Of a stretch of DNA of 46,807 nucleotides, positions 5,203-44,053 are shown in pieces (the stretch's first letter is position 1; the number at the start of each line of letters is the position of its first letter). This DNA is from a virus. Both the position numbers and the translations under genes were made by a program. The notes below the pieces were generated by a model, which did no database searches, had not been told where the DNA came from, and saw nothing but the letters and a program-made list of their open reading frames with translations. The DNA lies in IMG/VR virus record IMGVR_UViG_3300038435_000067, positions 1 through 46,807 of that record; one strand, given 5' to 3'.

Positions 5203-5559
5203 ATGCAACACGGTGAATCTAAAGAACAAGCATCATTAATGTATTGGGCAGCCTTAGCAACACAAACGTACCCCGATTTAAAATGGTTGCACTGTTCGTT
5301 AAATGGTGTTAAATTAACCGCAGTGCAAGCCAAAATAGCTAAAGGGCAAGGAATGAAGCCAGGGATTGCAGATTTATTTTTGCCCGTTAAGCGTGGCGAA
5401 TATTCTGGGTTTTTTATTGAGATGAAATACAACAAAAATAAATTAACTAAAGAACAACAGGAATTTTTAGAATATGTAAAATCTCAAGGATTTTTGACAG
5501 CTGTATGTTATGGATGGTTTGAAGCTAAAGAACTATTGATTAAATATCTCAATCAATAG
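5203..5559 (+). CDS. VRR-NUC domain nuclease
   Basis: 118 aa. GIADLFLP...GFFIEMKY matches the PD-(D/E)xK core (D...ExK) of VRR-NUC proteins. Size is typical for the family. Confidence 0.7.
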   Translation: MQHGESKEQASLMYWAALATQTYPDLKWLHCSLNGVKLTAVQAKIAKGQGMKPGIADLFLPVKRGEYSGFFIEMKYNKNKLTKEQQEFLEYVKSQGFLTAVCYGWFEAKELLIKYLNQ

Positions 5560-7864: not shown

Positions 7865-9871
7865 TTAACCAAGAAATGTAACGGTACAATTAGTGGTGTA
7901 AAGATTTAAGCCACCAGTTCCGGCTATCCAATTACCTGATCCAGTTGCATCAAACTGAACCTGAAATTGTCCACCCTCGGGAAATGAAACTGTTGAATTA
8001 ATTATTCCGGTATCACTTCCGCCTTGATTGGCAATTGGAATACTATACGCAAATGTACCATTGACTGGCAATACAACTAGCCGTACATTACTAACAGTAC
8101 CCGTAGTTGCTAAACCTTGGAATTGAATTGAATAAATACCATTAAAGGGTAAAGTAAACGTACCGTTAACACCGTCATATAAATGAGGTATTCCACTACC
8201 CACTATTGTATCAAATAACAATGCTTGATTAGTGCCCGTGGTGTAATTTAAATCATTCATTAATGCAATCAATTGGGTAACTGGATTTGCTCCAATGCCT
8301 TCATTTATAATTTCTTTTTCAAACTGGTTTAAACCTATTGCTAAATCATTTTGTGTAACTATTTGATTATTGCCAGCTTCTCCGATAACTTGTGGAGCAT
8401 AACCCCAAAATGTAAAATATGCATTTTGAGTACCTGCTGTATTATTTGACATAAAGCCAAAATTACCATATACCGGAGTAACCCATTTTGCTGCAACTGG
8501 GGCAGTAATTGAATTCCATGTCAAAGTATAGGTAGCGCTATCTGGCTCAGATACAAGGCCTTGTGCGCCTGCCGTTGAAAAACCGTCTGACGTCAATAAT
8601 AAAAAAACTCGATTAATTGCATCATAAGCCGCACCAGTCCATACTTCTGAACTTGGCAAAGGATTAGAAGAGCCATCAGTCCATACAGTATTGTAGTCAA
8701 AATACATGTAACTTGTTGTTGGACTGCCGCTGGTATCAATTAATAGCACAATATTTGGACTAGCGCACATTTTAGCCGATGTATATGTTGTGATAGGCAA
8801 AGTAGAAGATGCCTGCCATGTTCCTGCATTAGTAACACTTTGTGCTGTATTACCACTAGCTAACGATACAGCTAAAAAGAGAGGGGCACCATTAGTACCA
8901 AAAAAATTGGAAACAAAACACACATTATTATAGTCATCAGCAGTCGGCAAAGAAACAGGTATCCAATTGTTACCATCCGCTGATACGGTTGATTGCCCAG
9001 TGTTACCCACAGCAACAAAATAGCCTGCTCCAAAAGTAATATCATTAATTGAAGTAATACCCGTATCTGGGAAATAATTAGACCAAGTTACTAAATCAGT
9101 GGAATATGCATAAGTTCCATCTCCACCAACGATAACCCATACACCGTTACCGTAAACTATTCCGACTAAATCTACACCCAATGCATTGATTGGCGTACCT
9201 GTTATCCAAGTTCTACCATTATTTAATGTATATGATAATACTCCTGTGCCATCGGCTTCAGGAGTACATACTAAAAATAATCCATTTTGGCCAAATGCAG
9301 AAAATGCATAAGTTGCGTTTGGGGGTGAATCAGTTAGTTGATTAAATGTCATAATAGCAGAATGAGAAGTTAATGCAATAGATGTAGCAGGGTTTATCAA
9401 TTGAAAAACGGCACCATCATAAACAAGATAAGAAATTCCATTTGTTACTAAATCACCTGTTGCCACAGATTCTTGATTAGTTAAAATAATAGCTTTGGCG
9501 CCTGTCGTACCAACTGTAATAAATGGACTTGTCGTTAAATTAGAATTAGCGATTAAAACTTCAAATTGCATTCCAGTCACTAATGAACCAACTGCTGGGT
9601 CTGGAGTTATGACATAATTATCCGCACTACCCGTATCTACGGCATATGTAAAAGCTTGATTTTGAATATCTTGAGGTGTAACGCTTCCTCCGCCGACTGC
9701 TGATAAGTCTACAGATAAGGTTTGTGTGCCAGAGTCATAAGATGATGAACCATTTTGCACTATTGTGTCATCGCCAGACGTAACAACTAACGAAGTTGCA
9801 CCACCTGAACCACCGCCTCCAGAACTTGGATTTGGGTATATATTTCCGCCATTTGGATATGTGTTACTCAT
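7865..9871 (-). CDS. Long tail fibre / receptor-binding protein (Gly-rich N-terminus, Asp-box-like repeats, C1q/TNF-like C-terminal domain)
   Basis: ATG at 9871 with GGAG 8 nt upstream (the track start at 9889 is TTG). It carries the tail-fibre block FTYAVDTGSADNYVITP...VTNGISYLVYDGAVFQL and repeats such as YSTDLVTW and VSADGNNW. The C-terminus GTFTLPFNGIYSIQFQG...CTVTFLG resembles C1q jelly-roll signatures. Confidence 0.7.
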   Translation of the reverse strand: MSNTYPNGGNIYPNPSSGGGGSGGATSLVVTSGDDTIVQNGSSSYDSGTQTLSVDLSAVGGGSVTPQDIQNQAFTYAVDTGSADNYVITPDPAVGSLVTGMQFEVLIANSNLTTSPFITVGTTGAKAIILTNQESVATGDLVTNGISYLVYDGAVFQLINPATSIALTSHSAIMTFNQLTDSPPNATYAFSAFGQNGLFLVCTPEADGTGVLSYTLNNGRTWITGTPINALGVDLVGIVYGNGVWVIVGGDGTYAYSTDLVTWSNYFPDTGITSINDITFGAGYFVAVGNTGQSTVSADGNNWIPVSLPTADDYNNVCFVSNFFGTNGAPLFLAVSLASGNTAQSVTNAGTWQASSTLPITTYTSAKMCASPNIVLLIDTSGSPTTSYMYFDYNTVWTDGSSNPLPSSEVWTGAAYDAINRVFLLLTSDGFSTAGAQGLVSEPDSATYTLTWNSITAPVAAKWVTPVYGNFGFMSNNTAGTQNAYFTFWGYAPQVIGEAGNNQIVTQNDLAIGLNQFEKEIINEGIGANPVTQLIALMNDLNYTTGTNQALLFDTIVGSGIPHLYDGVNGTFTLPFNGIYSIQFQGLATTGTVSNVRLVVLPVNGTFAYSIPIANQGGSDTGIINSTVSFPEGGQFQVQFDATGSGNWIAGTGGLNLYTTNCTVTFLG

Positions 9872-9872
9872 C

Positions 9873-10271
9873 TTAATAACTCCGATCAACTAAAAGATTA
9901 ATATATGCTGCACCTGTAATTCCCGTGCAAGTAATATCTAGTGATTCTACAATTCCGTAAAATTGTAAAATACAAGCTGATGCAATATTTATGCTATCAG
10001 TGGGGGTAATATCGGTGGAATATGGTGCATCATCTGCAGCAAAAGCCTTTATTTGTATAGTTCCTGACAATCCTGTTTTTATAACTGTTAATTTAGTTGG
10101 AACGTACAATCCATTTTCTAATTGTGTCACCTCATTATAAAAGCAAGCAGTAATTTGATTTTGAAATTGTGTATATCCAGCATTTCCGTTGATAGGACTA
10201 GTCTTTATAAAATAATTTTGATTTGGATTTAATAAAGTTCCATCTGCTGCTAATAAAATATTTGTTCTCAT
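9873..10271 (-). CDS. Hypothetical tail-fibre-module protein
   Basis: 132 aa, lies between two fibre-module genes. No motif recognised. Confidence 0.55.
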   Translation of the reverse strand: MRTNILLAADGTLLNPNQNYFIKTSPINGNAGYTQFQNQITACFYNEVTQLENGLYVPTKLTVIKTGLSGTIQIKAFAADDAPYSTDITPTDSINIASACILQFYGIVESLDITCTGITGAAYINLLVDRSY

Positions 10272-10801: not shown

Positions 10802-11511
10802 AGTCCACCTATCAGATTTCCGCCTATTGCTCGCGTGGCAGAAATACTACCACCAATTGAACCAATAGCGTTTTGGGTTCCAATAAAATATTTAGATATT
10901 TCACTAATTACTGTAGTATTAATACTTCCGGGATCTAAATGCGTAATGTCAGAAGTTAAAAATGTTACTTCACAAATCATGCAATTTAAACTATCAAATG
11001 TATAATTAATATCAAAAGATACTGGTAAAACGTTCATTACTTTTTGATAAAACGGATGAGTTAAAACCCCTAATCCGCCAACACTATTATTAAATAAAGC
11101 TTGAACAAAATTACGCATTGCAGATTGATACATTGTGCCAGCAAAAACCACATTAAATGTTATATTTTGTGATCCTACCCCAAGATCAACAGGTACATCA
11201 TAATTGGCAAATGGTACTCTATTTAATACGTATTTTCTCCTGATTGATTCTCGAATTCCCTGACTGTATAAGCTTGTGTTAAATAATGAAACATTTGGAT
11301 CAATACTACTATTACCAGTAAATAAATTAAATGCACTAACAGCACCTTGCACGTATTGTTCAATCGGCACTTGTTGATTATTAACTACCATAAATGAGAC
11401 AGTAGAATTATTAGGATTTGTATAACTGGCATTATTCATTTGCCAATTAAAAATTCCCGATAAATATGCTATTTGATTTATGCTATTTAATGCACTTATT
11501 GCATTTGCCAT
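10798..11511 (-). CDS. Hypothetical virion protein
   Basis: 237 aa, directly downstream of the short tail-fibre gene. Confidence 0.55.
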   Translation of the reverse strand: MANAISALNSINQIAYLSGIFNWQMNNASYTNPNNSTVSFMVVNNQQVPIEQYVQGAVSAFNLFTGNSSIDPNVSLFNTSLYSQGIRESIRRKYVLNRVPFANYDVPVDLGVGSQNITFNVVFAGTMYQSAMRNFVQALFNNSVGGLGVLTHPFYQKVMNVLPVSFDINYTFDSLNCMICEVTFLTSDITHLDPGSINTTVISEISKYFIGTQNAIGSIGGSISATRAIGGNLIGGL

Positions 11512-38243: not shown

Positions 38244-38548
38244 TATACTTCACCAATAATGTTGCCGCTTGGTTCGTGGGTAGAAGTATCTGGTTCTTTT
38301 TTTAGATTTTCATCTTCAATTTGTGTATTTTTGGCAATTTCGGCTAATTCTTCAGGTGTTAAATCTCTAGGTGCAACAGTTTGAGAATCAAGTAAAAAAC
38401 GAGCCATTCCACCTGCGGGTTGAGTCAATTGAGAATCTTCTCCGTGTGTAACTTTGATCACAAGTCTATTGTCTGCCAAAAGAATTTTAGTAAAAACCAG
38501 ATTCGGTATTGTTGTTTCGTTTACAGCTAACACTTCAGTTATTTGCAT
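38243..38548 (-). CDS. Hypothetical protein, first gene of the long leftward unit
   Basis: 101 aa. The SD AAAGGAAA and ATG at 38548 lie 18 nt after the leader terminator U-tract. Confidence 0.6.
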   Translation of the reverse strand: MQITEVLAVNETTIPNLVFTKILLADNRLVIKVTHGEDSQLTQPAGGMARFLLDSQTVAPRDLTPEELAEIAKNTQIEDENLKKEPDTSTHEPSGNIIGEV

Positions 38549-38566
38549 AATTTTTTTCCTTTAGTG

Positions 38567-38603
38567 AAAAAAAAACCCCACTCTATAATGAAACGAAGCG
38601 GGG
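38567..38603 (-). terminator. Intrinsic terminator in the leader of the long leftward unit
   Basis: The - strand RNA reads CCCCGCUU-12 nt-GAGUGGGG (8 bp including 2 G-U pairs) followed by U9 (38575-38567). An A-run/T-run on both sides makes it potentially bidirectional. Confidence 0.7.
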
Positions 38604-38610
38604 TTTTCTG

Positions 38611-38660
38611 TTGAATGCGTACATTCAATTCGCTCGTTTCATAATGCAAATTCAATGTAC
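38611..38660 (-). promoter_or_regulatory. Leader RNA alternative hairpins A and B
   Basis: Hairpin A pairs GUACAUUGAAUU (38660-38649) with AAUUGAAUGUAC (38630-38619), 11 of 12 bp. Hairpin B is UUGAAUG-UACG-CAUUCAA (38628-38611). They share the segment 38628-38619 and so exclude each other. Confidence 0.55.
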
Positions 38661-38667
38661 AGACTGC

Positions 38668-38696
38668 ATTATAACCAATGTTTTTGCATTTGTCAA
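38668..38696 (-). promoter_or_regulatory. Consensus sigma70 promoter of the long leftward unit
   Basis: On the - strand: TTGACA (38696-38691), exactly 17 nt, TATAAT (38673-38668). A ~40-nt A-rich tract lies upstream (plus-strand T-rich 38698-38737). Confidence 0.75.
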
Positions 38697-38875
38697 ATTT
38701 TTTTTAATTTTGTTTTTAATTTTTTTATTTTTTGAATTTAACCGTTTAAACGCTCTATAAGCTTTTCATTTTAGCCTGGATATAGTAAGATACCACACCA
38801 CCCATTAAAACTTAACCTACACCCCAAGAAATCGAAATAAACAACATATAGGGTTATGAGTTAAAGTCTGTAAAA

Positions 38876-39793
38876 TCAAATTTGTTGTTTTTGTCGTTTT
38901 TCAAACTCTTCAGATTCGATCACGTGATTTCTGTGTGCAATTAACGAATTGCCGTACAATCGAACATTTTTGCTGTCAGTAATGATGCGCTGTCGTGGCT
39001 TTACTAATGCCCGATAGTTTTGTCCCGTCAATAATGCGTCTTCAATGTCTAGCGCTTCATTTGCCCATTTGTGTAACGTGATTATGGTTGTGCGTATTTG
39101 GTGTGGTTGTAAAGAGGGTTTAGCCAAAATGTAACCGTAGATCATGTCCCATTCAGCGTTAGTAAACTTTGCGTTTTGTTCTTTTGCTATTTTTTGCCAA
39201 CAGTCAAAACTTTCATTTGCCATTTTTTTGATGTAAGGAGGTGTTTCCAAATTTTGCGGAGGGGGTGTTTCCGAAGTCGCGCGCATGCGCTGTACTTGTA
39301 CTACTCTTTCTCTTTCTCTCTCTCTTTCTCTAGGAGCGTTACATTCGTTACAATCACTTGTTACCTGATCGTTACCTTCTGTTACATGTAACGAATGTAA
39401 CGCGTTACATTCTGCATTTGCCTTCTTGCGAAGCCTATATTTTGCAACCCTTTCCGAAGAATCATCATATTTACCAATGAGTTTAGGTACTTCAATAAAG
39501 AAAATTGTATTGTTATCAACATCTTGCATTAAATTTGTGCTTCGTAAAAAACTGACAGCCATTTTTAAATTATCTACCTCTTCATCCAAAATTAATGCCA
39601 ATTCTTCTTCAATTTTTGGCTCTAAATTTTGAAATTCATAGTGACCTTCAGTATTAACTGTGAGCAACATTAATTTCTGATAAATGATCAAATATTTGTC
39701 CCCACCCGCAATTTTTCGCAATTTTTTTACTGCCGGAGAACTAAAAAAATCCACCTTCAATTTCAACCAATTATTTTTTTTATTATCGTTCAT
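38876..39793 (-). CDS. Replisome organizer / replication initiator (phage_rep_org_N-like)
   Basis: 305 aa. The N-terminus NWLKLKVDFFSSPAVKKLRKIAGGDKYLIIYQKLML fits the replisome-organizer N-terminal domain pattern. The central linker overlaps the repeat-rich ori candidate. Confidence 0.7.
   Translation of the reverse strand: MNDNKKNNWLKLKVDFFSSPAVKKLRKIAGGDKYLIIYQKLMLLTVNTEGHYEFQNLEPKIEEELALILDEEVDNLKMAVSFLRSTNLMQDVDNNTIFFIEVPKLIGKYDDSSERVAKYRLRKKANAECNALHSLHVTEGNDQVTSDCNECNAPRERERERERVVQVQRMRATSETPPPQNLETPPYIKKMANESFDCWQKIAKEQNAKFTNAEWDMIYGYILAKPSLQPHQIRTTIITLHKWANEALDIEDALLTGQNYRALVKPRQRIITDSKNVRLYGNSLIAHRNHVIESEEFEKRQKQQI
39304..39331. repeat. 28-nt polypyrimidine (CT-rich) tract, polypurine on the coding strand
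   Basis: ctctttctctttctctctctctttctct, encoding RERERERER in the initiator linker. Confidence 0.9.
39338..39412. other. Candidate replication origin: GTTAC iteron cluster with palindromes
   Basis: Five direct GTTAC(A/C) copies at 39338, 39347, 39360, 39371 and 39381 (9-13 bp spacing). There are also two inverted GTAAC copies at 39388 and 39397 and a sixth direct copy at 39404, a 12-bp palindrome GTTACATGTAAC (39381-39392) and a perfect 20-bp palindrome GAATGTAACGCGTTACATTC (39393-39412). Confidence 0.5.
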
Positions 39794-40209
39794 CTTTTAA
39801 ATCCTACCATTTTATAATTGTCTTTTTCTGATTTTTCGCCACCTGGTTCAATTGGTTTAAAAAATTCTTTGGTGTCTTCATTCCAACGCATTCCAGCATC
39901 TTTCATTGCCATTACAAAATCTCGTTTATCTTTAAATTTTTTATCATTTACTTGGCAAATAGGACAACCCAACCATTTTATTGCGCCAGAAGGAAATCGA
40001 TGTAATTCGTTATCAAAATAACGTTGATGACGTTGACAAAAATCATCAATTTTAGTATCAAGAATATGCGGGATTTTAAAAGTAATCTTATCTTTTTTAC
40101 AATTTTTAAAACCATCTTCTTTTTGACAATTTTCATGACCTCTATGCCACACTTGCATTGTTATTTCATGTTCTAAGGTTTTAAAGGGATTTTCAAGATT
40201 TTTGGACAT
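39790..40209 (-). CDS. Cys/His-rich (Zn-binding-like) early protein
   Basis: 139 aa. HRGHENC...NCKK and GCPICQ clusters. It is the first gene of the short leftward unit, with GGAG 8 nt upstream of the ATG. Confidence 0.6.
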   Translation of the reverse strand: MSKNLENPFKTLEHEITMQVWHRGHENCQKEDGFKNCKKDKITFKIPHILDTKIDDFCQRHQRYFDNELHRFPSGAIKWLGCPICQVNDKKFKDKRDFVMAMKDAGMRWNEDTKEFFKPIEPGGEKSEKDNYKMVGFKR

Positions 40210-40224
40210 TATGGAGGCTCCATT

Positions 40225-40269
40225 AAAAAACCCTATTCATCACAAGGTACTAGCAAGTAAGAAATAGGG
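40225..40269 (-). terminator. Leader terminator-like hairpin of the short leftward unit
   Basis: The - strand RNA reads CCCUAUU (40269-40263), a 25-nt loop, AAUAGGG (40237-40231), then U6 (40230-40225). The ATG at 40209 follows 15 nt later. The stem is short and the loop large, so it is weaker than the 38567 terminator. Confidence 0.45.
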
Positions 40270-40285
40270 CTATTTAAAAGGTTAT

Positions 40286-40323
40286 ACACCAATCAACAGC
40301 CTAGTACGCCACACATTGGTGTG
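40286..40323 (-). promoter_or_regulatory. Leader RNA alternative hairpins of the short leftward unit
   Basis: Hairpin A pairs ACACCAAU (40322-40315) with AUUGGUGU (40293-40286), 8 bp with a 21-nt loop. The overlapping hairpin B is CACAC-CAAU-GUGUG (40323-40310). Confidence 0.5.
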
Positions 40324-40334
40324 CAACAGACATT

Positions 40335-40364
40335 ACTATAACTCAAAATATATCCAATTGTCAA
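40335..40364 (-). promoter_or_regulatory. Leftward early promoter
   Basis: On the - strand: TTGACA (40364-40359), 18-nt spacer, TATAGT (40340-40335). It lies back-to-back with the rightward promoter at 40420. Confidence 0.6.
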
Positions 40365-40419
40365 ATTAATAATATATTGCATTGCACAACAGAAAGTTCA
40401 AAATAAATGCAAAAAAGAT

Positions 40420-40449
40420 TTGACACTTGAATACCTGATGTGGCATAAT
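40420..40449 (+). promoter_or_regulatory. Rightward early promoter P1
   Basis: TTGACA (40420-40425), 18-nt spacer ending in the extended -10 element TGg, CATAAT (40444-40449). Confidence 0.7.
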
Positions 40450-40459
40450 ACAGTCATAG

Positions 40460-40480
40460 GTTGGCAAATTGGTTGCCAGC
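40460..40480 (+). promoter_or_regulatory. 5' leader hairpin or palindromic operator downstream of P1
   Basis: GUUGGCAA-AUUGG-UUGCCAGC (8 bp including one G-U, 5-nt loop), starting about +5 from the predicted start. No U-tract follows. Confidence 0.55.
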
Positions 40481-40503
40481 AAAAACAAAATGAGGTAATA
40501 AAA

Positions 40504-40884
40504 ATGAAAACATTCAACAATCAAACAAATACTTACAAAATTTTCAATTTAATTGATATTAATGGCATCAATTGGGTGGGTGATTTTATTGGCAATACTG
40601 GCGCTTTAAATGATGGCCAATTTAATTGGGATGACGAATTAGATGCCTATATTTGTGATAATGATACTTACGATTGGTGGCAAAATGCTATCAAAAAACA
40701 ACAATGGATCACAAATACTGAACAGGAAATTAAACAACAAATTACAGATAATGTAAAATATGATAATTTTATTAATAATTTTATACAATGTGGAGATAAT
40801 GATTTAGAAATGAGTTTAATGTTACAAATTGATTTTTTAACAAATTTCGCAACAAATAATAATTTACAAATTCAGGAGATTTAA
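40504..40884 (+). CDS. Hypothetical acidic early protein, first gene of the P1 operon
   Basis: ATG at 40504 with GAGG 8 nt upstream. The track start at 40420 is the TTG of the -35 hexamer and is rejected. 126 aa, D/N/Q-rich. Confidence 0.6.
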   Translation: MKTFNNQTNTYKIFNLIDINGINWVGDFIGNTGALNDGQFNWDDELDAYICDNDTYDWWQNAIKKQQWITNTEQEIKQQITDNVKYDNFINNFIQCGDNDLEMSLMLQIDFLTNFATNNNLQIQEI

Positions 40885-40885
40885 A

Positions 40886-41089
40886 ATGACAAATTTAACA
40901 GAATTTAAAGAAACATTAAGACAATATTACAATGATTGCATAGCTGAAAGACACCACAAAATGAAAAGATTAGCAGATGCGTATAATTTGCCACGCAAAC
41001 GTTATGAAAAAGCGTTTGCGTTGGGTGAAAAATTATTTAAAACTGAACAAATGCGTGCACAAACTTATCTTAATGAAAGGTTAAAATGA
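40886..41089 (+). CDS. Hypothetical small basic helical protein
   Basis: 67 aa, AGGAG upstream. Confidence 0.55.
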   Translation: MTNLTEFKETLRQYYNDCIAERHHKMKRLADAYNLPRKRYEKAFALGEKLFKTEQMRAQTYLNERLK

Positions 41090-41152
41090 AAACTTTAGAA
41101 GATTAGTAGGATTGGGAATTTCATATTTGGGATATTTTGGAGATAATAAAGA

Positions 41153-41371
41153 ATGATAATAATTGATACTTGCGATAAATGCAAGCATTTTAATAAAAAA
41201 CTTTGGGACGAAACCGACGGTTATAGTCATGAATATTGTTATTATGGTATAGATTGTTCCCCCAATTTTGGATGCATTGATTGGGAAGAAAAACCCAAAG
41301 ATGATAGCAGAATAAAAGCACTTGAAGAAAATGTTGCAAAAATTCTTAATATGTTTTTGGAGACAAAATAA
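41153..41371 (+). CDS. Hypothetical Cys-rich small protein
   Basis: 72 aa. CDKC ... C-x-C pattern. GGAG upstream. Confidence 0.55.
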   Translation: MIIIDTCDKCKHFNKKLWDETDGYSHEYCYYGIDCSPNFGCIDWEEKPKDDSRIKALEENVAKILNMFLETK

Positions 41372-41646
41372 TGATAAAAATTGAAAAAATAGAAACTGAT
41401 TTGACTGTTGAGGATATTTTAGAAAAATATTCGGAAATTTTATTTGAGAAAATAGGGCTTCCATTTATGCGTGGTGAGCTTTCGACTGTAATGTTAATTG
41501 CGGATGTGGAAAGTTTAATAAAACTAGATTTAAAAAATATCGGAATAGACACAATACAAGGAATAGCAATTAATGTAATTAAAATTACAGATGCGTTTAT
41601 TGAAAGATTATACTTATCAATAAAACTAGCAAATGAAAAGGTGTAA
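41371..41646 (+). CDS. Hypothetical protein
   Basis: 91 aa. Its ATG overlaps the upstream stop, with GGAG upstream. Confidence 0.55.
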   Translation: MIKIEKIETDLTVEDILEKYSEILFEKIGLPFMRGELSTVMLIADVESLIKLDLKNIGIDTIQGIAINVIKITDAFIERLYLSIKLANEKV

Positions 41647-41648
41647 TT

Positions 41649-43340
41649 ATGGATAAAATAATTTTAAATGAAAATACCTTATTTTTGGATACTGAAACTA
41701 CTGGATTAGATAGTAATGCAGAAATATGCGAAATAACTATAATTGATCATAATGGTTTACCATTAATAAATACTTTGATTAAACCAATTAAACCAATTCC
41801 AGAAGAAGCCATTAAAATACATGGTATCACTAATGAGATGGTAAAAGATGCGCCCAGTTTTTCAGATATTTATTTTGAATTATTAAATATTCTTTTTTTA
41901 AAAAAAATTATAATTTATAATGCAGATTATGATTTACGTTTATTGAGACAATGTGCTGATTTAACTGGGGTGCATCATAAATCACGTGAACCATTTGAAG
42001 CAGTACAAGGTAACAGTATATGTGCCATGAAATCATATCAACAATTCACTGAATCCAATAAATGGACTAAACTTACTAAAGCATGCGAACAAATGAAAAT
42101 TGATGTGTCTGATATAACGGCTCATAGAGCATTGTCAGATTGTATAATGACTTTAAGATTAATTAAAGCCATTAATTCAAAACTCGATTTAATGGTAGCT
42201 GGCACAGAAGTAAAATACATCGGGAATGACCAAAAATATTATGGCAAAATGGGAATTTTTGAACGCATGATCAGTAATAGTTCGGCGGCTAAAATTAAAA
42301 TTGACAATATAATGGCAATCTTTGACATATCAAATCTGATTGCAATTGATGAAAAGGAACCAAACAATATGACAACTCAACCAGAAATTATTACAAATAA
42401 TCAATTAACTTCAGAAATTAAATTTGATATAGTTTTTAAACAGCCAGAAATTAATTTTGATGAAGAACAATTTAAGGCTAGTATTAATGACGTAATAGCA
42501 CCCGTGAAAGATTTGGGGGATAATCCAACAAAAGAAGTATTAACTGAAACGCTGGCTAAATTACGTAAATTTCAAAAAGAAATTAGCGATAGACGTATTG
42601 CAATTGTCAAAGAAATTAAACAGCCAATTACTGATTTAGAATCTAAAATCAAAAAAGGTGATGCCGAAATTGAAACTTACATCAGTAAATACGATGCATT
42701 ACTTAAAGTTATCGAAGCTAAAACTAAAGCTGTAAAAAAAACAGAAATTGATTTAATGATCACAAAATATATTGAATCTAATAAATTAAACAAAATTTAT
42801 GCAGAAAAATTGACGTTTTTAGATGAATATTATTTGGTGAAATGGTCATTTGAAAAAATAGCTATAGATTTGGATAAAAGAGCGGCAGAACTATTTAAAC
42901 AGCAAGATTATGAGCGTATACAATTAGAGCTTAAGAACACGCAAATTGAAAGCCGAGCGCGTTTAATTGAACAGCTTAATGCAGAATATAATCTTGAATT
43001 TAAATATGCAGCTTTACCGATTGATAATTATGATGATTTAGCAGTTAAACAACATTATATTAAGACTAGATCTACTCTTGATGAAGCACAAAAACAAAAA
43101 TTAGCTGAAAAACCGATAACATCACAATTTGAACAAGCGGCAAAAGTAACGGCTGAACTTGATGCAATTGCTGAAGTTTGGACTCATTCAAAAAATGAAG
43201 AAGTTTTTCCGAAAACTGAATCTGATTCACCTTATTTAATATATCAAAATTTACGTCTTGGTGCAGCTAATCAATCATTAATAATGCAAGCTGTTGCAAA
43301 ATTAAAAGCTGATGGTTTGAATGTGGAGTTTATAAAATGA
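41649..43340 (+). CDS. DEDD (DnaQ-like) 3'-5' exonuclease fused to a long coiled-coil DUF1351-like region
   Basis: 563 aa. The exonuclease motifs are Exo I FLDTETTGLD, Exo II IIYNADYDLRLL and Exo III AHRALSDC. The C-terminal ~330 aa are charged and helical. Confidence 0.7.
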   Translation: MDKIILNENTLFLDTETTGLDSNAEICEITIIDHNGLPLINTLIKPIKPIPEEAIKIHGITNEMVKDAPSFSDIYFELLNILFLKKIIIYNADYDLRLLRQCADLTGVHHKSREPFEAVQGNSICAMKSYQQFTESNKWTKLTKACEQMKIDVSDITAHRALSDCIMTLRLIKAINSKLDLMVAGTEVKYIGNDQKYYGKMGIFERMISNSSAAKIKIDNIMAIFDISNLIAIDEKEPNNMTTQPEIITNNQLTSEIKFDIVFKQPEINFDEEQFKASINDVIAPVKDLGDNPTKEVLTETLAKLRKFQKEISDRRIAIVKEIKQPITDLESKIKKGDAEIETYISKYDALLKVIEAKTKAVKKTEIDLMITKYIESNKLNKIYAEKLTFLDEYYLVKWSFEKIAIDLDKRAAELFKQQDYERIQLELKNTQIESRARLIEQLNAEYNLEFKYAALPIDNYDDLAVKQHYIKTRSTLDEAQKQKLAEKPITSQFEQAAKVTAELDAIAEVWTHSKNEEVFPKTESDSPYLIYQNLRLGAANQSLIMQAVAKLKADGLNVEFIK

Positions 43341-43656: not shown

Positions 43657-43698
43657 TGCACCGCACAACAAAAAGTTTAAAATAAATGCAAAAAAGAT

Positions 43699-43728
43699 TT
43701 GACATCTGAATACCTAATGTGGCATAAT
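43699..43728 (+). promoter_or_regulatory. Rightward early promoter P2
   Basis: TTGACA (43699-43704), 18-nt spacer with TGg, CATAAT (43723-43728). Confidence 0.7.
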
Positions 43729-43738
43729 ACGGTCATAG

Positions 43739-43759
43739 GTTGGCAAATTGGTTGCCAGC
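43739..43759 (+). promoter_or_regulatory. 5' leader hairpin or operator downstream of P2
   Basis: Identical to the hairpin at 40460-40480. Confidence 0.55.
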
Positions 43760-43783
43760 AAAAAACAAAATGAGGTAATAAAA

Positions 43784-44053
43784 ATGAAAAATCAAGATTT
43801 ACAAAAATTTATGGATGAATCCTTGGCTCGTGCTAAATTAAACTTTAAATTTAGAAAAAGTATTGAAAAACAATTCGGTTTCAAAAATTTGGCTATATGG
43901 TTTTTATCAAATAATCCTCAAGATATAATTGTAAAAGTTGAATCAAATACCGAAAATTTAGCTATTTTTAATAAAACACCTATCAAATTTATACAAAATT
44001 TTTTATTAAATGAATTTAATCATGAAGTTAAAGACATTGGCTATTCAATTTAA
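43784..44053 (+). CDS. Hypothetical protein, first gene of the P2 operon
   Basis: ATG at 43784 with GAGG 8 nt upstream. The track start at 43748 lies inside the leader hairpin and is rejected. Confidence 0.6.
   Translation: MKNQDLQKFMDESLARAKLNFKFRKSIEKQFGFKNLAIWFLSNNPQDIIVKVESNTENLAIFNKTPIKFIQNFLLNEFNHEVKDIGYSI

Follow-up and report, generated by a model that had tools for sequence, protein, structure and literature searches.

The window analysed here is the whole 46,807-nucleotide stretch (46.8 kb) of IMG/VR virus record IMGVR_UViG_3300038435_000067, a complete JGI contig of an AT-rich (~32% G+C) tailed phage, in which we examined a promoter and the short leader that follows it on the minus strand (40364-40224). 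The two predicted hairpins of the leader carry mutually complementary heptamers in their apical loops. This leader lies in a divergent control region at ~40.3-40.5 kb. On one side, a rightward promoter at 40420-40449 serves a long early operon that runs on into the contig start and encodes an RNase T/DUF1351 exonuclease, RecE-like and RecT-like proteins, a methylase and a resolvase. On the other side, the leftward promoter at 40.3 kb serves the gene of a 139-aa Cys/His-rich protein (39790-40209, minus strand), an open reading frame (ORF) whose product has a fold without known match, and then that of a DnaD-like replisome organiser (38876-39793, minus strand; Pfam Phage_rep_org_N, E = 2.8e-20; phrog_5968, E = 8.6e-35). 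Further along the same strand, an operon of ~33 kb extends from 38548 to an endolysin gene at 5549 and was taken as the late operon because it contains the terminase gene; it is headed by its own promoter (38696-38668) and by a second leader of the same design. No GenBank phage DNA similar to window positions 38500-41700 was found, and terminase identity to known phages was only ~40%.

The leftward promoter is of the sigma-70 type (TTGACA-18-TATAGT, 40364-40335, minus strand; TTGACA at 40364-40359, TATAGT at 40340-40335) and lies exactly where the initial annotation, made from the sequence without database searches, had placed it. It scored 11/12 in a promoter scan, in which sites of at least 11/12 were about 2-fold more frequent in the window (9) than in resampled sequence (4.15 +/- 2.0). 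Transcription is predicted to start near G40327, at the base of hairpin A, giving a leader RNA of ~103 nt. Unconstrained minimum free energy (MFE) folds placed hairpin A at 40327-40281 (-15.3 kcal/mol, minus strand). Its lower stem, formed by ACACCAAU (40322-40315) and AUUGGUGU (40293-40286) with 21 nt between them, had been proposed before, and folding extended it by an outer 4 bp, a 3x3 internal loop and a 4-bp upper stem (40311-40308 with 40300-40297), leaving the heptamer GUACUAG (40307-40301) as an exact 7-nt apical loop.

The second hairpin, at 40276-40224 (minus strand; MFE -13.3 to -15.4 kcal/mol), is a stable, G+C-containing structure directly followed by a U6 tract (40230-40225) and thus corresponds, as predicted from its sequence, to an intrinsic terminator. 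Its core pairing, CCCUAUU (40269-40263) with AAUAGGG (40237-40231), and its U-run had been positioned correctly, but the 7-bp stem and 25-nt loop first drawn there were replaced in the MFE structure by an A/U extension, a 10-bp lower stem (40271-40262 with 40238-40229), a 4-bp upper stem (40260-40257 with 40243-40240) and a 13-nt apical loop. This loop holds the heptamer CUAGUAC (40253-40247), which starts with a YUNR-type CUAG and is exactly complementary over 7 bp to the loop of hairpin A, as had been noticed from the sequence; both heptamers stand on one transcript and the same strand, 54 nt apart. A simple terminator scan was limited to loops of 3-8 nt and therefore missed this terminator.

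The Shine-Dalgarno (SD) sequence GGAG (40221-40218) and the ATG at 40209 were also found as described, the latter 15 nt 3' of the U-run. Because these 15 nt leave no room for a promoter, the 139-aa protein gene and the replisome organiser of the window appear expressible only by read-through of the terminator. The SD lies in a small hairpin directly 5' of the ATG (AUGGAGCCUCCAU, 40223-40211, minus strand; MFE -2.5 kcal/mol) that would sequester it; this hairpin is specific to the window and is not conserved in relatives, whose start-codon spacing is longer. Two kinds of candidate leader peptide were rejected, one starting at ATG 40333, which lies only 2 nt past the -10 box and hence upstream of the likely transcription start, and the other mini-ORF of the leader, which has no SD.

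On the window sequence alone, tests against chance were weak. The whole leader folds at -36 kcal/mol (z = -2.5), with 3/200 shuffles folding equally well, and a 7-nt Watson-Crick complement anywhere between the two hairpin domains reaches p = 0.049; restricting the search to the MFE apical loops gives p = 0.0012. We thus turned to related loci, numbered L001 to L019, which were fetched via homologues of the 139-aa protein, by protein identity or protein patterns only, one of them (L011) being a contig of a metagenome-assembled genome. As retrieval relied only on protein homology, their leaders are out-of-sample tests of the earlier hypothesis. IMG/VR scans with the 139-aa protein as query, with leader DNA patterns and with family alignments returned L001-like contigs only, and metagenome scans with two family alignments gave nothing with one and only a duplicate of L015 with the other.

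Eight distinct related leaders were recovered, all from uncultured phages (L009, L011, L012, L013, L014, L015, L017 and L018, that of L015 being identical in L016 and L019). In their common layout, hairpin A stands 5-10 nt past a -10 box and is joined by a short linker to a terminator hairpin, which is followed by U4-U7. Above the long lower stem of hairpin A come an internal loop, an upper stem of 3-4 bp and, at the tip, an apical loop of ~7 nt. Unconstrained MFE folding recovered hairpin A (with a 6-8-nt apical loop), the terminator hairpin and the U-run in all nine leaders, window included, and the U-tract directly after the terminator hairpin is kept in each. In these structures, both hairpins have roughly equal arms of ~18-20 nt plus internal loops, and are separated by linkers of 1-8 nt. 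Internal loops and linkers vary in length and sequence, with almost no conservation outside the helices.

The loops themselves differ from phage to phage, and their complementarity persists. Loops of hairpin A and of the terminator read AUAACGG/CCGUUAU in L012, GUGUAAG/CUUACAC in L013, GAUUGAG/CUCAAUC in L014, GAGUAAG/CUUACUC in L015, GUGUGAA/UUCACAC in L017 and GGAUCAG/CUGAUCC in L018; L011 (GUGGUAG/CUACCAU) includes one G.U pair, and L009 (AGCCAG/CUGGUCU) pairs over 6 bp with a bulge. In L012, L014, L015, L017 and L018 the two heptamers are exact 7-nt MFE apical loops, perfectly complementary and closed by stable stems, and in the window and L013 the heptamer lies inside a larger terminator loop. 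Loop A is semi-conserved only at positions 1, 6 and 7 (GNNNNAG), and the terminator loop starts with YUNR in 7/9 leaders.

The longest Watson-Crick match between the MFE apical loops of each leader was 7, 4, 7, 7, 7, 6, 7, 7 and 7 nt over the nine leaders, against a maximum of 5 and a mode of 3 among 72 cross-pair combinations. Per-leader p values ranged from 4e-4 to 2e-3, except in L009 (0.067), and Fisher's combined p was 1.6e-17. In a gap-free alignment of the structural modules, 99.6% of cells were paired, compared with 58.9% in shuffled alignments (0/500 reached the observed value) and 33-43% when partners were slid. Changes on both sides were found in 25 of the 26 pairs and stems were 98-100% paired; the kissing helix had all seven pairs changed on both sides and remained 100% paired across the nine leaders. 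The alignment contains 16 G.U cells and a single non-pair; read on the opposite strand, each G.U would be an A-C mismatch, so the structure is a property of the transcribed strand. RNAalifold applied to a plain MAFFT alignment recovered hairpin A and its 7-nt loop unaided, with compensatory changes in 15/21 pairs; the terminator halves, of variable length, could not be aligned by MAFFT and were addressed with a descriptor scan, since a covariance model cannot encode the kissing helix. These leaders thus present two loops of ~7 nt, fully complementary in most of them, whose complementarity is kept through sequence change. Covariation in eight independent relatives supports selection on the loop-loop complementarity, and this pattern makes the kissing-loop leader structure very probably real and selected.

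A second instance of the design heads the late operon at 38696-38567 (minus strand) and was delineated by promoter scan, folding and descriptor scan. Its promoter, TTGACA-17-TATAAT (38696-38668), matches the consensus at 12/12 positions, its heptamers are GAAACGA (38640-38634) and UCGUUUC (38596-38590), and its predicted terminator pairs CCCCGCU (38603-38597) with AGUGGGG (38582-38576) ahead of U9 (38575-38567). The descriptor accepted only sites in which two hairpin domains of 8 bp or more enclose complementary heptamers in their apical loops and a U-run no shorter than U5 closes the 3' end. Applied to both strands of the window, it returned exactly two sites, 40307/40253 and 38640/38596, against 0.17 in resampled sequence, both directly after near-consensus promoters. 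The initial annotation had claimed that the two leaders share an architecture without sharing sequence, and that this reflected an RNA-level device rather than chance; the two-site scan and the covariation in relatives bear out both points and go far beyond chance where the shuffle statistics of the window had not.

Over 57 kb of related loci, the descriptor returned the early leaders with perfect heptamers, the late leader of L001, a new late-type leader in L012 (GCAAGAG/CUCUUGC, behind TTGACA-18-CATAAT) and nothing else, all downstream of promoter-like boxes. Early and late-type leaders coexist in the window, L009 and L012, and a late-type leader is also present in L001; in all, four phages with sequence available there have the device ahead of the late or late-type unit. 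Late leaders covary too: GAAACGG/CCGUUUC in L001 versus GAAACGA/UCGUUUC in the window is a clean A-U to G-C exchange, and CUAGAGA/UCUCUAG in L009 versus CAAGAG/CUCUUG in L012 is a U-A to A-U exchange within an otherwise homologous terminator. In late-type leaders, the heptamer abuts a short terminator stem. Early and late heptamers are unrelated within a genome (GUACUAG vs GAAACGA in the window, AGCCAG vs CUAGAGA in L009), so each leader is self-contained. A 5-codon mini-ORF without SD also overlies the upstream heptamer of two late leaders (ATGAAACGAGCGAATTGA at window 38634-38654, minus strand; ATGTATCGAAACGGATAA at L001 ~11413-11433).

The explanation we favour overall, with moderate confidence, is that of a promoter-proximal attenuator leader built on kissing loops. 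An action of the leader on transcription termination of the downstream genes is somewhat more likely than not; what the kissing contact does in particular, and which factor would allow read-through, are tentative proposals. By default the unit would be off, most transcripts ending at the U-tract as a compact RNA of ~100 nt, and the 139-aa protein and replisome organiser would be made only from transcripts that read through. The kissing contact may tie both hairpins into one rigid fold securing fast and efficient formation of the terminator, and a phage factor might recognise this fold by shape and allow read-through. Any such trans factor would have to read shape and not sequence, because the loops vary freely, even within one genome. 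Gene linkage points to a single candidate, the 139-aa zinc-finger protein, and it is no more than a candidate since its fold matches nothing known. Terminators of different strength could then release the replication genes first (U6, about -13 kcal/mol) and the late genes afterwards (U9); the timing of the late operon would have to be set after initiation, because its leader follows a perfect 12/12 consensus promoter.

Several observations weigh against this attenuator. Termination, read-through and kissing are all predictions from sequence, and the module alignment was assembled by hand from MFE structures. Relatives such as L012 and L014 have terminator hairpins that are strong without kissing (-22 to -23 kcal/mol), so these hairpins are stable enough without the contact. 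Both hairpins would have to bend at their internal loops for a 7-bp loop-loop helix to form within one molecule across linkers of 1-8 nt; predicted arms of ~18-20 nt with internal loops are compatible with side-by-side helices kissing in cis. Pfam, PHROG and NCBIfam scans of 40 window ORFs recognised no antiterminator or RNA-binding protein, and no repressor, integrase, Q, N or sigma factor; their annotation offered no candidate for a trans factor shared by both leaders. An AlphaFold2 model of the 139-aa protein (pLDDT, the predicted local distance difference test, of 78 with a 20-sequence alignment; 47 with 4 sequences) had no structural neighbour in PDB or BFVD, and its sequence no match in PDB. 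Finally, the design expected in related genomes was found in eight of them, but L001, the closest relative by protein identity (72%), has no leader of the 40.3-kb type, and in L005 an int-alpA RNA stands in the leader's place, ahead of the homologous gene, where L006 has almost the same sequence. The kissing-loop leader is thus common but not obligatory for this gene module.

How the two loops would be used was weighed against other readings. A classical attenuator, in which hairpin B would compete with hairpin A, or a nested GUACUAG:CUAGUAC helix with the terminator, as mutually exclusive folds, seems to us very unlikely. Hairpin B (CACAC/GUGUG, 40323-40310) does exist as initially described, its extended form is a plausible transient co-transcriptional intermediate in the window (-7.6 kcal/mol), and the 38.6-kb leader also has a competing small hairpin (GAAUGuacgCAUUC). 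As drawn, however, hairpin B reaches only -3.8 kcal/mol and the intermediates of relatives -0.1 to -5.4 kcal/mol, and forcing the nested helix carries a penalty of 6.6 kcal/mol in the window and of 14-31 kcal/mol in relatives (eight leaders). We found no competitive and conserved alternative pairing overlapping the terminator, and the mutually exclusive role first assigned to hairpin B, weak and not conserved, was abandoned. Because of the cost of a nested antiterminator and the lack of conservation of hairpin B, the heptamer pairing fits a tertiary kissing (pseudoknot) contact coexisting with both hairpins, and exact 7-nt loops on stable stems, as in the five relatives named above, are the signature of kissing and not of strand exchange. 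Chance hairpins with a chance 7-mer in AT-rich intergenic DNA, or DNA inverted repeats serving as protein operators, would agree with the window alone (7-mer p ~0.05, fold z of -2.5). This possibility is already refuted by the loop test across relatives, the covariation of all helices and the descriptor scan; the G.U pairs would be mismatches on the other strand, and an operator would keep its sequence, whereas only complementarity is kept here.

Other readings accept the structure and assign it a different function. The terminated leader of ~100 nt may itself be the product, a stable, compact small RNA that acts in trans on targets of the host or the phage. Hairpin A would bury its 5' end, the terminator would hold its 3' end and kissing would lock its loops, while read-through would simply provide low constitutive expression downstream. 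A start at the base of hairpin A and an end at the terminator would indeed delimit a discrete RNA in 9/9 leaders, no conserved protein-binding sequence is visible in the aligned internal loops or linker, and StxS is a precedent for a regulatory small RNA arising from early termination at a phage late promoter (PMC7547250). But the only strongly constrained unpaired nucleotides are the heptamers, which pair with each other and leave no obvious seed for a target, and which differ wholly from phage to phage, as they do between early and late leaders within a genome; a read-through mechanism would still be required for the late operon. We consider this the least unlikely of the alternatives, though still unlikely. 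Less probable again is a built-in cis antiterminator or RNA-polymerase modifier resembling HK022 put, in which loop A would capture the emerging terminator loop and hinder completion of the terminator stem or modify the polymerase, read-through being set by folding kinetics (Mg2+, temperature, transcription speed) with no protein. YUNR sequences are linked to rapid loop-loop pairing of antisense RNAs, and their presence in 7/9 leaders would suit a co-transcriptional decision. Two further points in favour are the position of the heptamer against the short terminator stem in late-type leaders and the failure of the window scans to recognise an antiterminator protein. A constitutive antiterminator behind a 12/12 late promoter would however give no temporal control; the loop pairing extends into the terminator stem in the late leader of the window, but this extension is not conserved in L001, and put RNAs are not known to include a terminator or kissing loops. 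Pairing might also be intermolecular, accumulated terminated leaders kissing nascent ones or forming dimers or multimers, so that termination would depend on RNA dosage (genome copy number, time); each leader would then be a private RNA-only sensor, with orthogonal heptamers timing replication versus late genes and no dedicated protein antiterminator. Plasmids control copy number with kissing RNAs ahead of replication genes, the element precedes such genes here, the 1-8-nt linkers make intramolecular kissing sterically demanding, and covariation cannot separate pairing in cis from pairing in trans. Against it, the equal arms of ~18-20 nt and the conserved internal loops fit side-by-side kissing in cis, the effective concentration of the loops is far higher on the same molecule, and RNA accumulation or dimerisation is a prediction only; we regard it as improbable, more so than the cis antiterminator and slightly less so than the classical attenuator.

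Several known systems resemble parts of the kissing-loop attenuator leader. Lambda-type late control relies on a constitutive promoter, PR', a short terminated 6S RNA and a terminator, tR', that is overcome by Q. The phage leaders resemble it in having a strong constitutive promoter and an intrinsic terminator within ~100-200 nt ahead of a long late operon, with a short RNA as the default product. In L009, the late-leader terminator is immediately followed by a tRNA gene (1841-1904), which thus precedes the first late gene, a resemblance to Stx phages. They differ from it in that no Q homologue was found among the 40 window ORFs (Pfam, PHROG, NCBIfam), in that selection acts strongly on the structure of the leader RNA itself, with its kissing loops, and in that the same device also precedes the early replication unit; within the lambda type, we compared them with the StxS terminated leader RNA of Stx phages (PMC7547250) and the structure of Q (PMC6606751). 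Two adjacent stem-loops soon after a promoter are also the layout of the HK022 put RNAs, a comparison limited to layout since Rfam has no put model. These are cis-acting antiterminator RNAs of a phage without N-like protein; put hairpins are not known to be terminators, to carry a U-tract or to show loop-loop complementarity.

In cobalamin-class riboswitches, an aptamer loop kisses the loop of an expression-platform hairpin, and lysine riboswitches have an L2-L3 kissing contact. Like them, the phage leaders would join an upstream and a regulatory hairpin by an intramolecular loop-loop helix, with internal loops that allow side-by-side helices; unlike them, they have no conserved ligand-binding core and no Rfam match, and the upstream loop has the terminator itself as its partner. 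ColE1 RNA I and RNA II form kissing complexes stabilised by Rop, and antisense loop-loop systems have YUNR loops; fully complementary 7-nt loops, free sequence with kept complementarity, a YUNR start and a replication context are shared features, but here both loops lie on the same sense transcript, with no antisense gene, and no Rop-like protein was identified. In the repZ/repA leaders of IncI-alpha/IncB plasmids, the loop of a hairpin pairs over a long range to make a pseudoknot close to the rep start, comparable to a 5' leader loop pairing with a downstream complement just ahead of a replication-initiator gene; the plasmid pseudoknots activate translation and are blocked by antisense RNA, whereas the phage partner is a terminator loop and a second copy stands at the late genes.

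The int-alpA RNA (RF02996) occupies the equivalent position in other relatives and also ends in a stem followed by U residues, which suggests that this module may have a further leader of terminator-like type in it; its fold is different (a three-way junction), and the window leader matched its model at no threshold tried. Sites were found in L005 (562-629, 44.9 bits, upstream of the zinc-finger gene homologue) and L015 (698-762, 38.7 bits, just downstream); the motif also lies just downstream in L019 (~1915-1975), and L006 has a sequence nearly identical to that of L005 upstream of the gene (~1040-1100).

No Rfam 15 family reached threshold anywhere in the window, and nothing relevant appeared at E <= 5 in 38400-40600 or, for the eight related leaders, at E <= 0.1; the literature searched contained no description of a kissing-loop terminator leader in phages. 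On this sequence evidence, we judge the leader to be a structured RNA motif that is new but belongs to a familiar class, the promoter-proximal terminator leaders of phages. Such terminators are usually seen as simple hairpins overridden by a protein (Q, N) or by an upstream RNA (put). Here the terminator loop itself is strongly selected to pair with an upstream hairpin loop, and the device precedes the zinc-finger/replication module in nine phage lineages with no recognisable antiterminator. If kissing sets or gates termination, this would be a new way to build a transcriptional timer and a compact, sequence-programmable part in which seven free nucleotides define specificity. At the least, these leaders form a well-supported structured RNA family of ~12 distinct sequences, with full covariation, absent from Rfam 15.

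The 139-aa protein is, by its sequence, a member of an uncharacterised family. It had no Pfam, PHROG or NCBIfam match, no tblastn match against phages and no exact record of the same protein; 3 close and 30 distant homologues were found, the 30 among 1.84 billion representative proteins. Conserved residues include C58, H61, H70, C82 and C85, with W79, G81 and P83 in a WxGCPxC motif. The gene 3' of a homologue is nearly always a replication-initiation gene (Phage_rep_org_N, DUF6291 or an IstB-like loader). The replisome-organiser gene of the window includes a low-complexity stretch, (GAGAAA/GAGAGA)n at 39260-39300 (minus strand), encoding a RERERERER run, and a comparable stretch is present in L007.

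Leader promoters of relatives have no TTGACA -35 box; a short phage-specific palindrome overlaps that position instead, as in L013 (2820-2838), L009 (~70-90), L014 (~165-182), L011 (~2226-2243) and L015 (~112-124), with CTAGGGAAATTCCCTAG, CCTAAATTTTTAGG, CCTAAGGTTTTAGG, ACGGGTATATTACCCGT and AGGAAAAATTCCT as examples. A regulator may bind at these palindromes, which the window promoter, with its consensus -35 box, does not have. In L001, a 74-aa helix-turn-helix-like gene with its own TG-extended promoter takes the leader's place (9777-10001); L001 retains the late leader and the region of the rightward promoter.

The window carries two copies, 96% identical, of the rightward early promoter cassette (40405-40507 and 43684-43787, plus strand). 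The cassette comprises TTGACA-18-CATAAT, a 5' stem-loop (GGUUGGCAA/UUGCCAGC), an SD and a first ATGAAAA, and a different small gene follows each copy. In each copy, the -35 box is preceded at a distance of exactly 31 bp by the motif TTGTGC-NN-TGCA (40378-40389 and 43657-43668, minus strand), a conserved motif that occurs twice in the window versus 0.2 times expected and is probably an operator or activator site. It is absent from L001 and present in all relatives with a kissing-loop leader, at L009 38-52, L011 2128, L012 41, L013 2294/2681/2751, L014 80, L015 38 and L017 929, the L009 version being a perfect palindrome (TTGTGCATTGCACAA).

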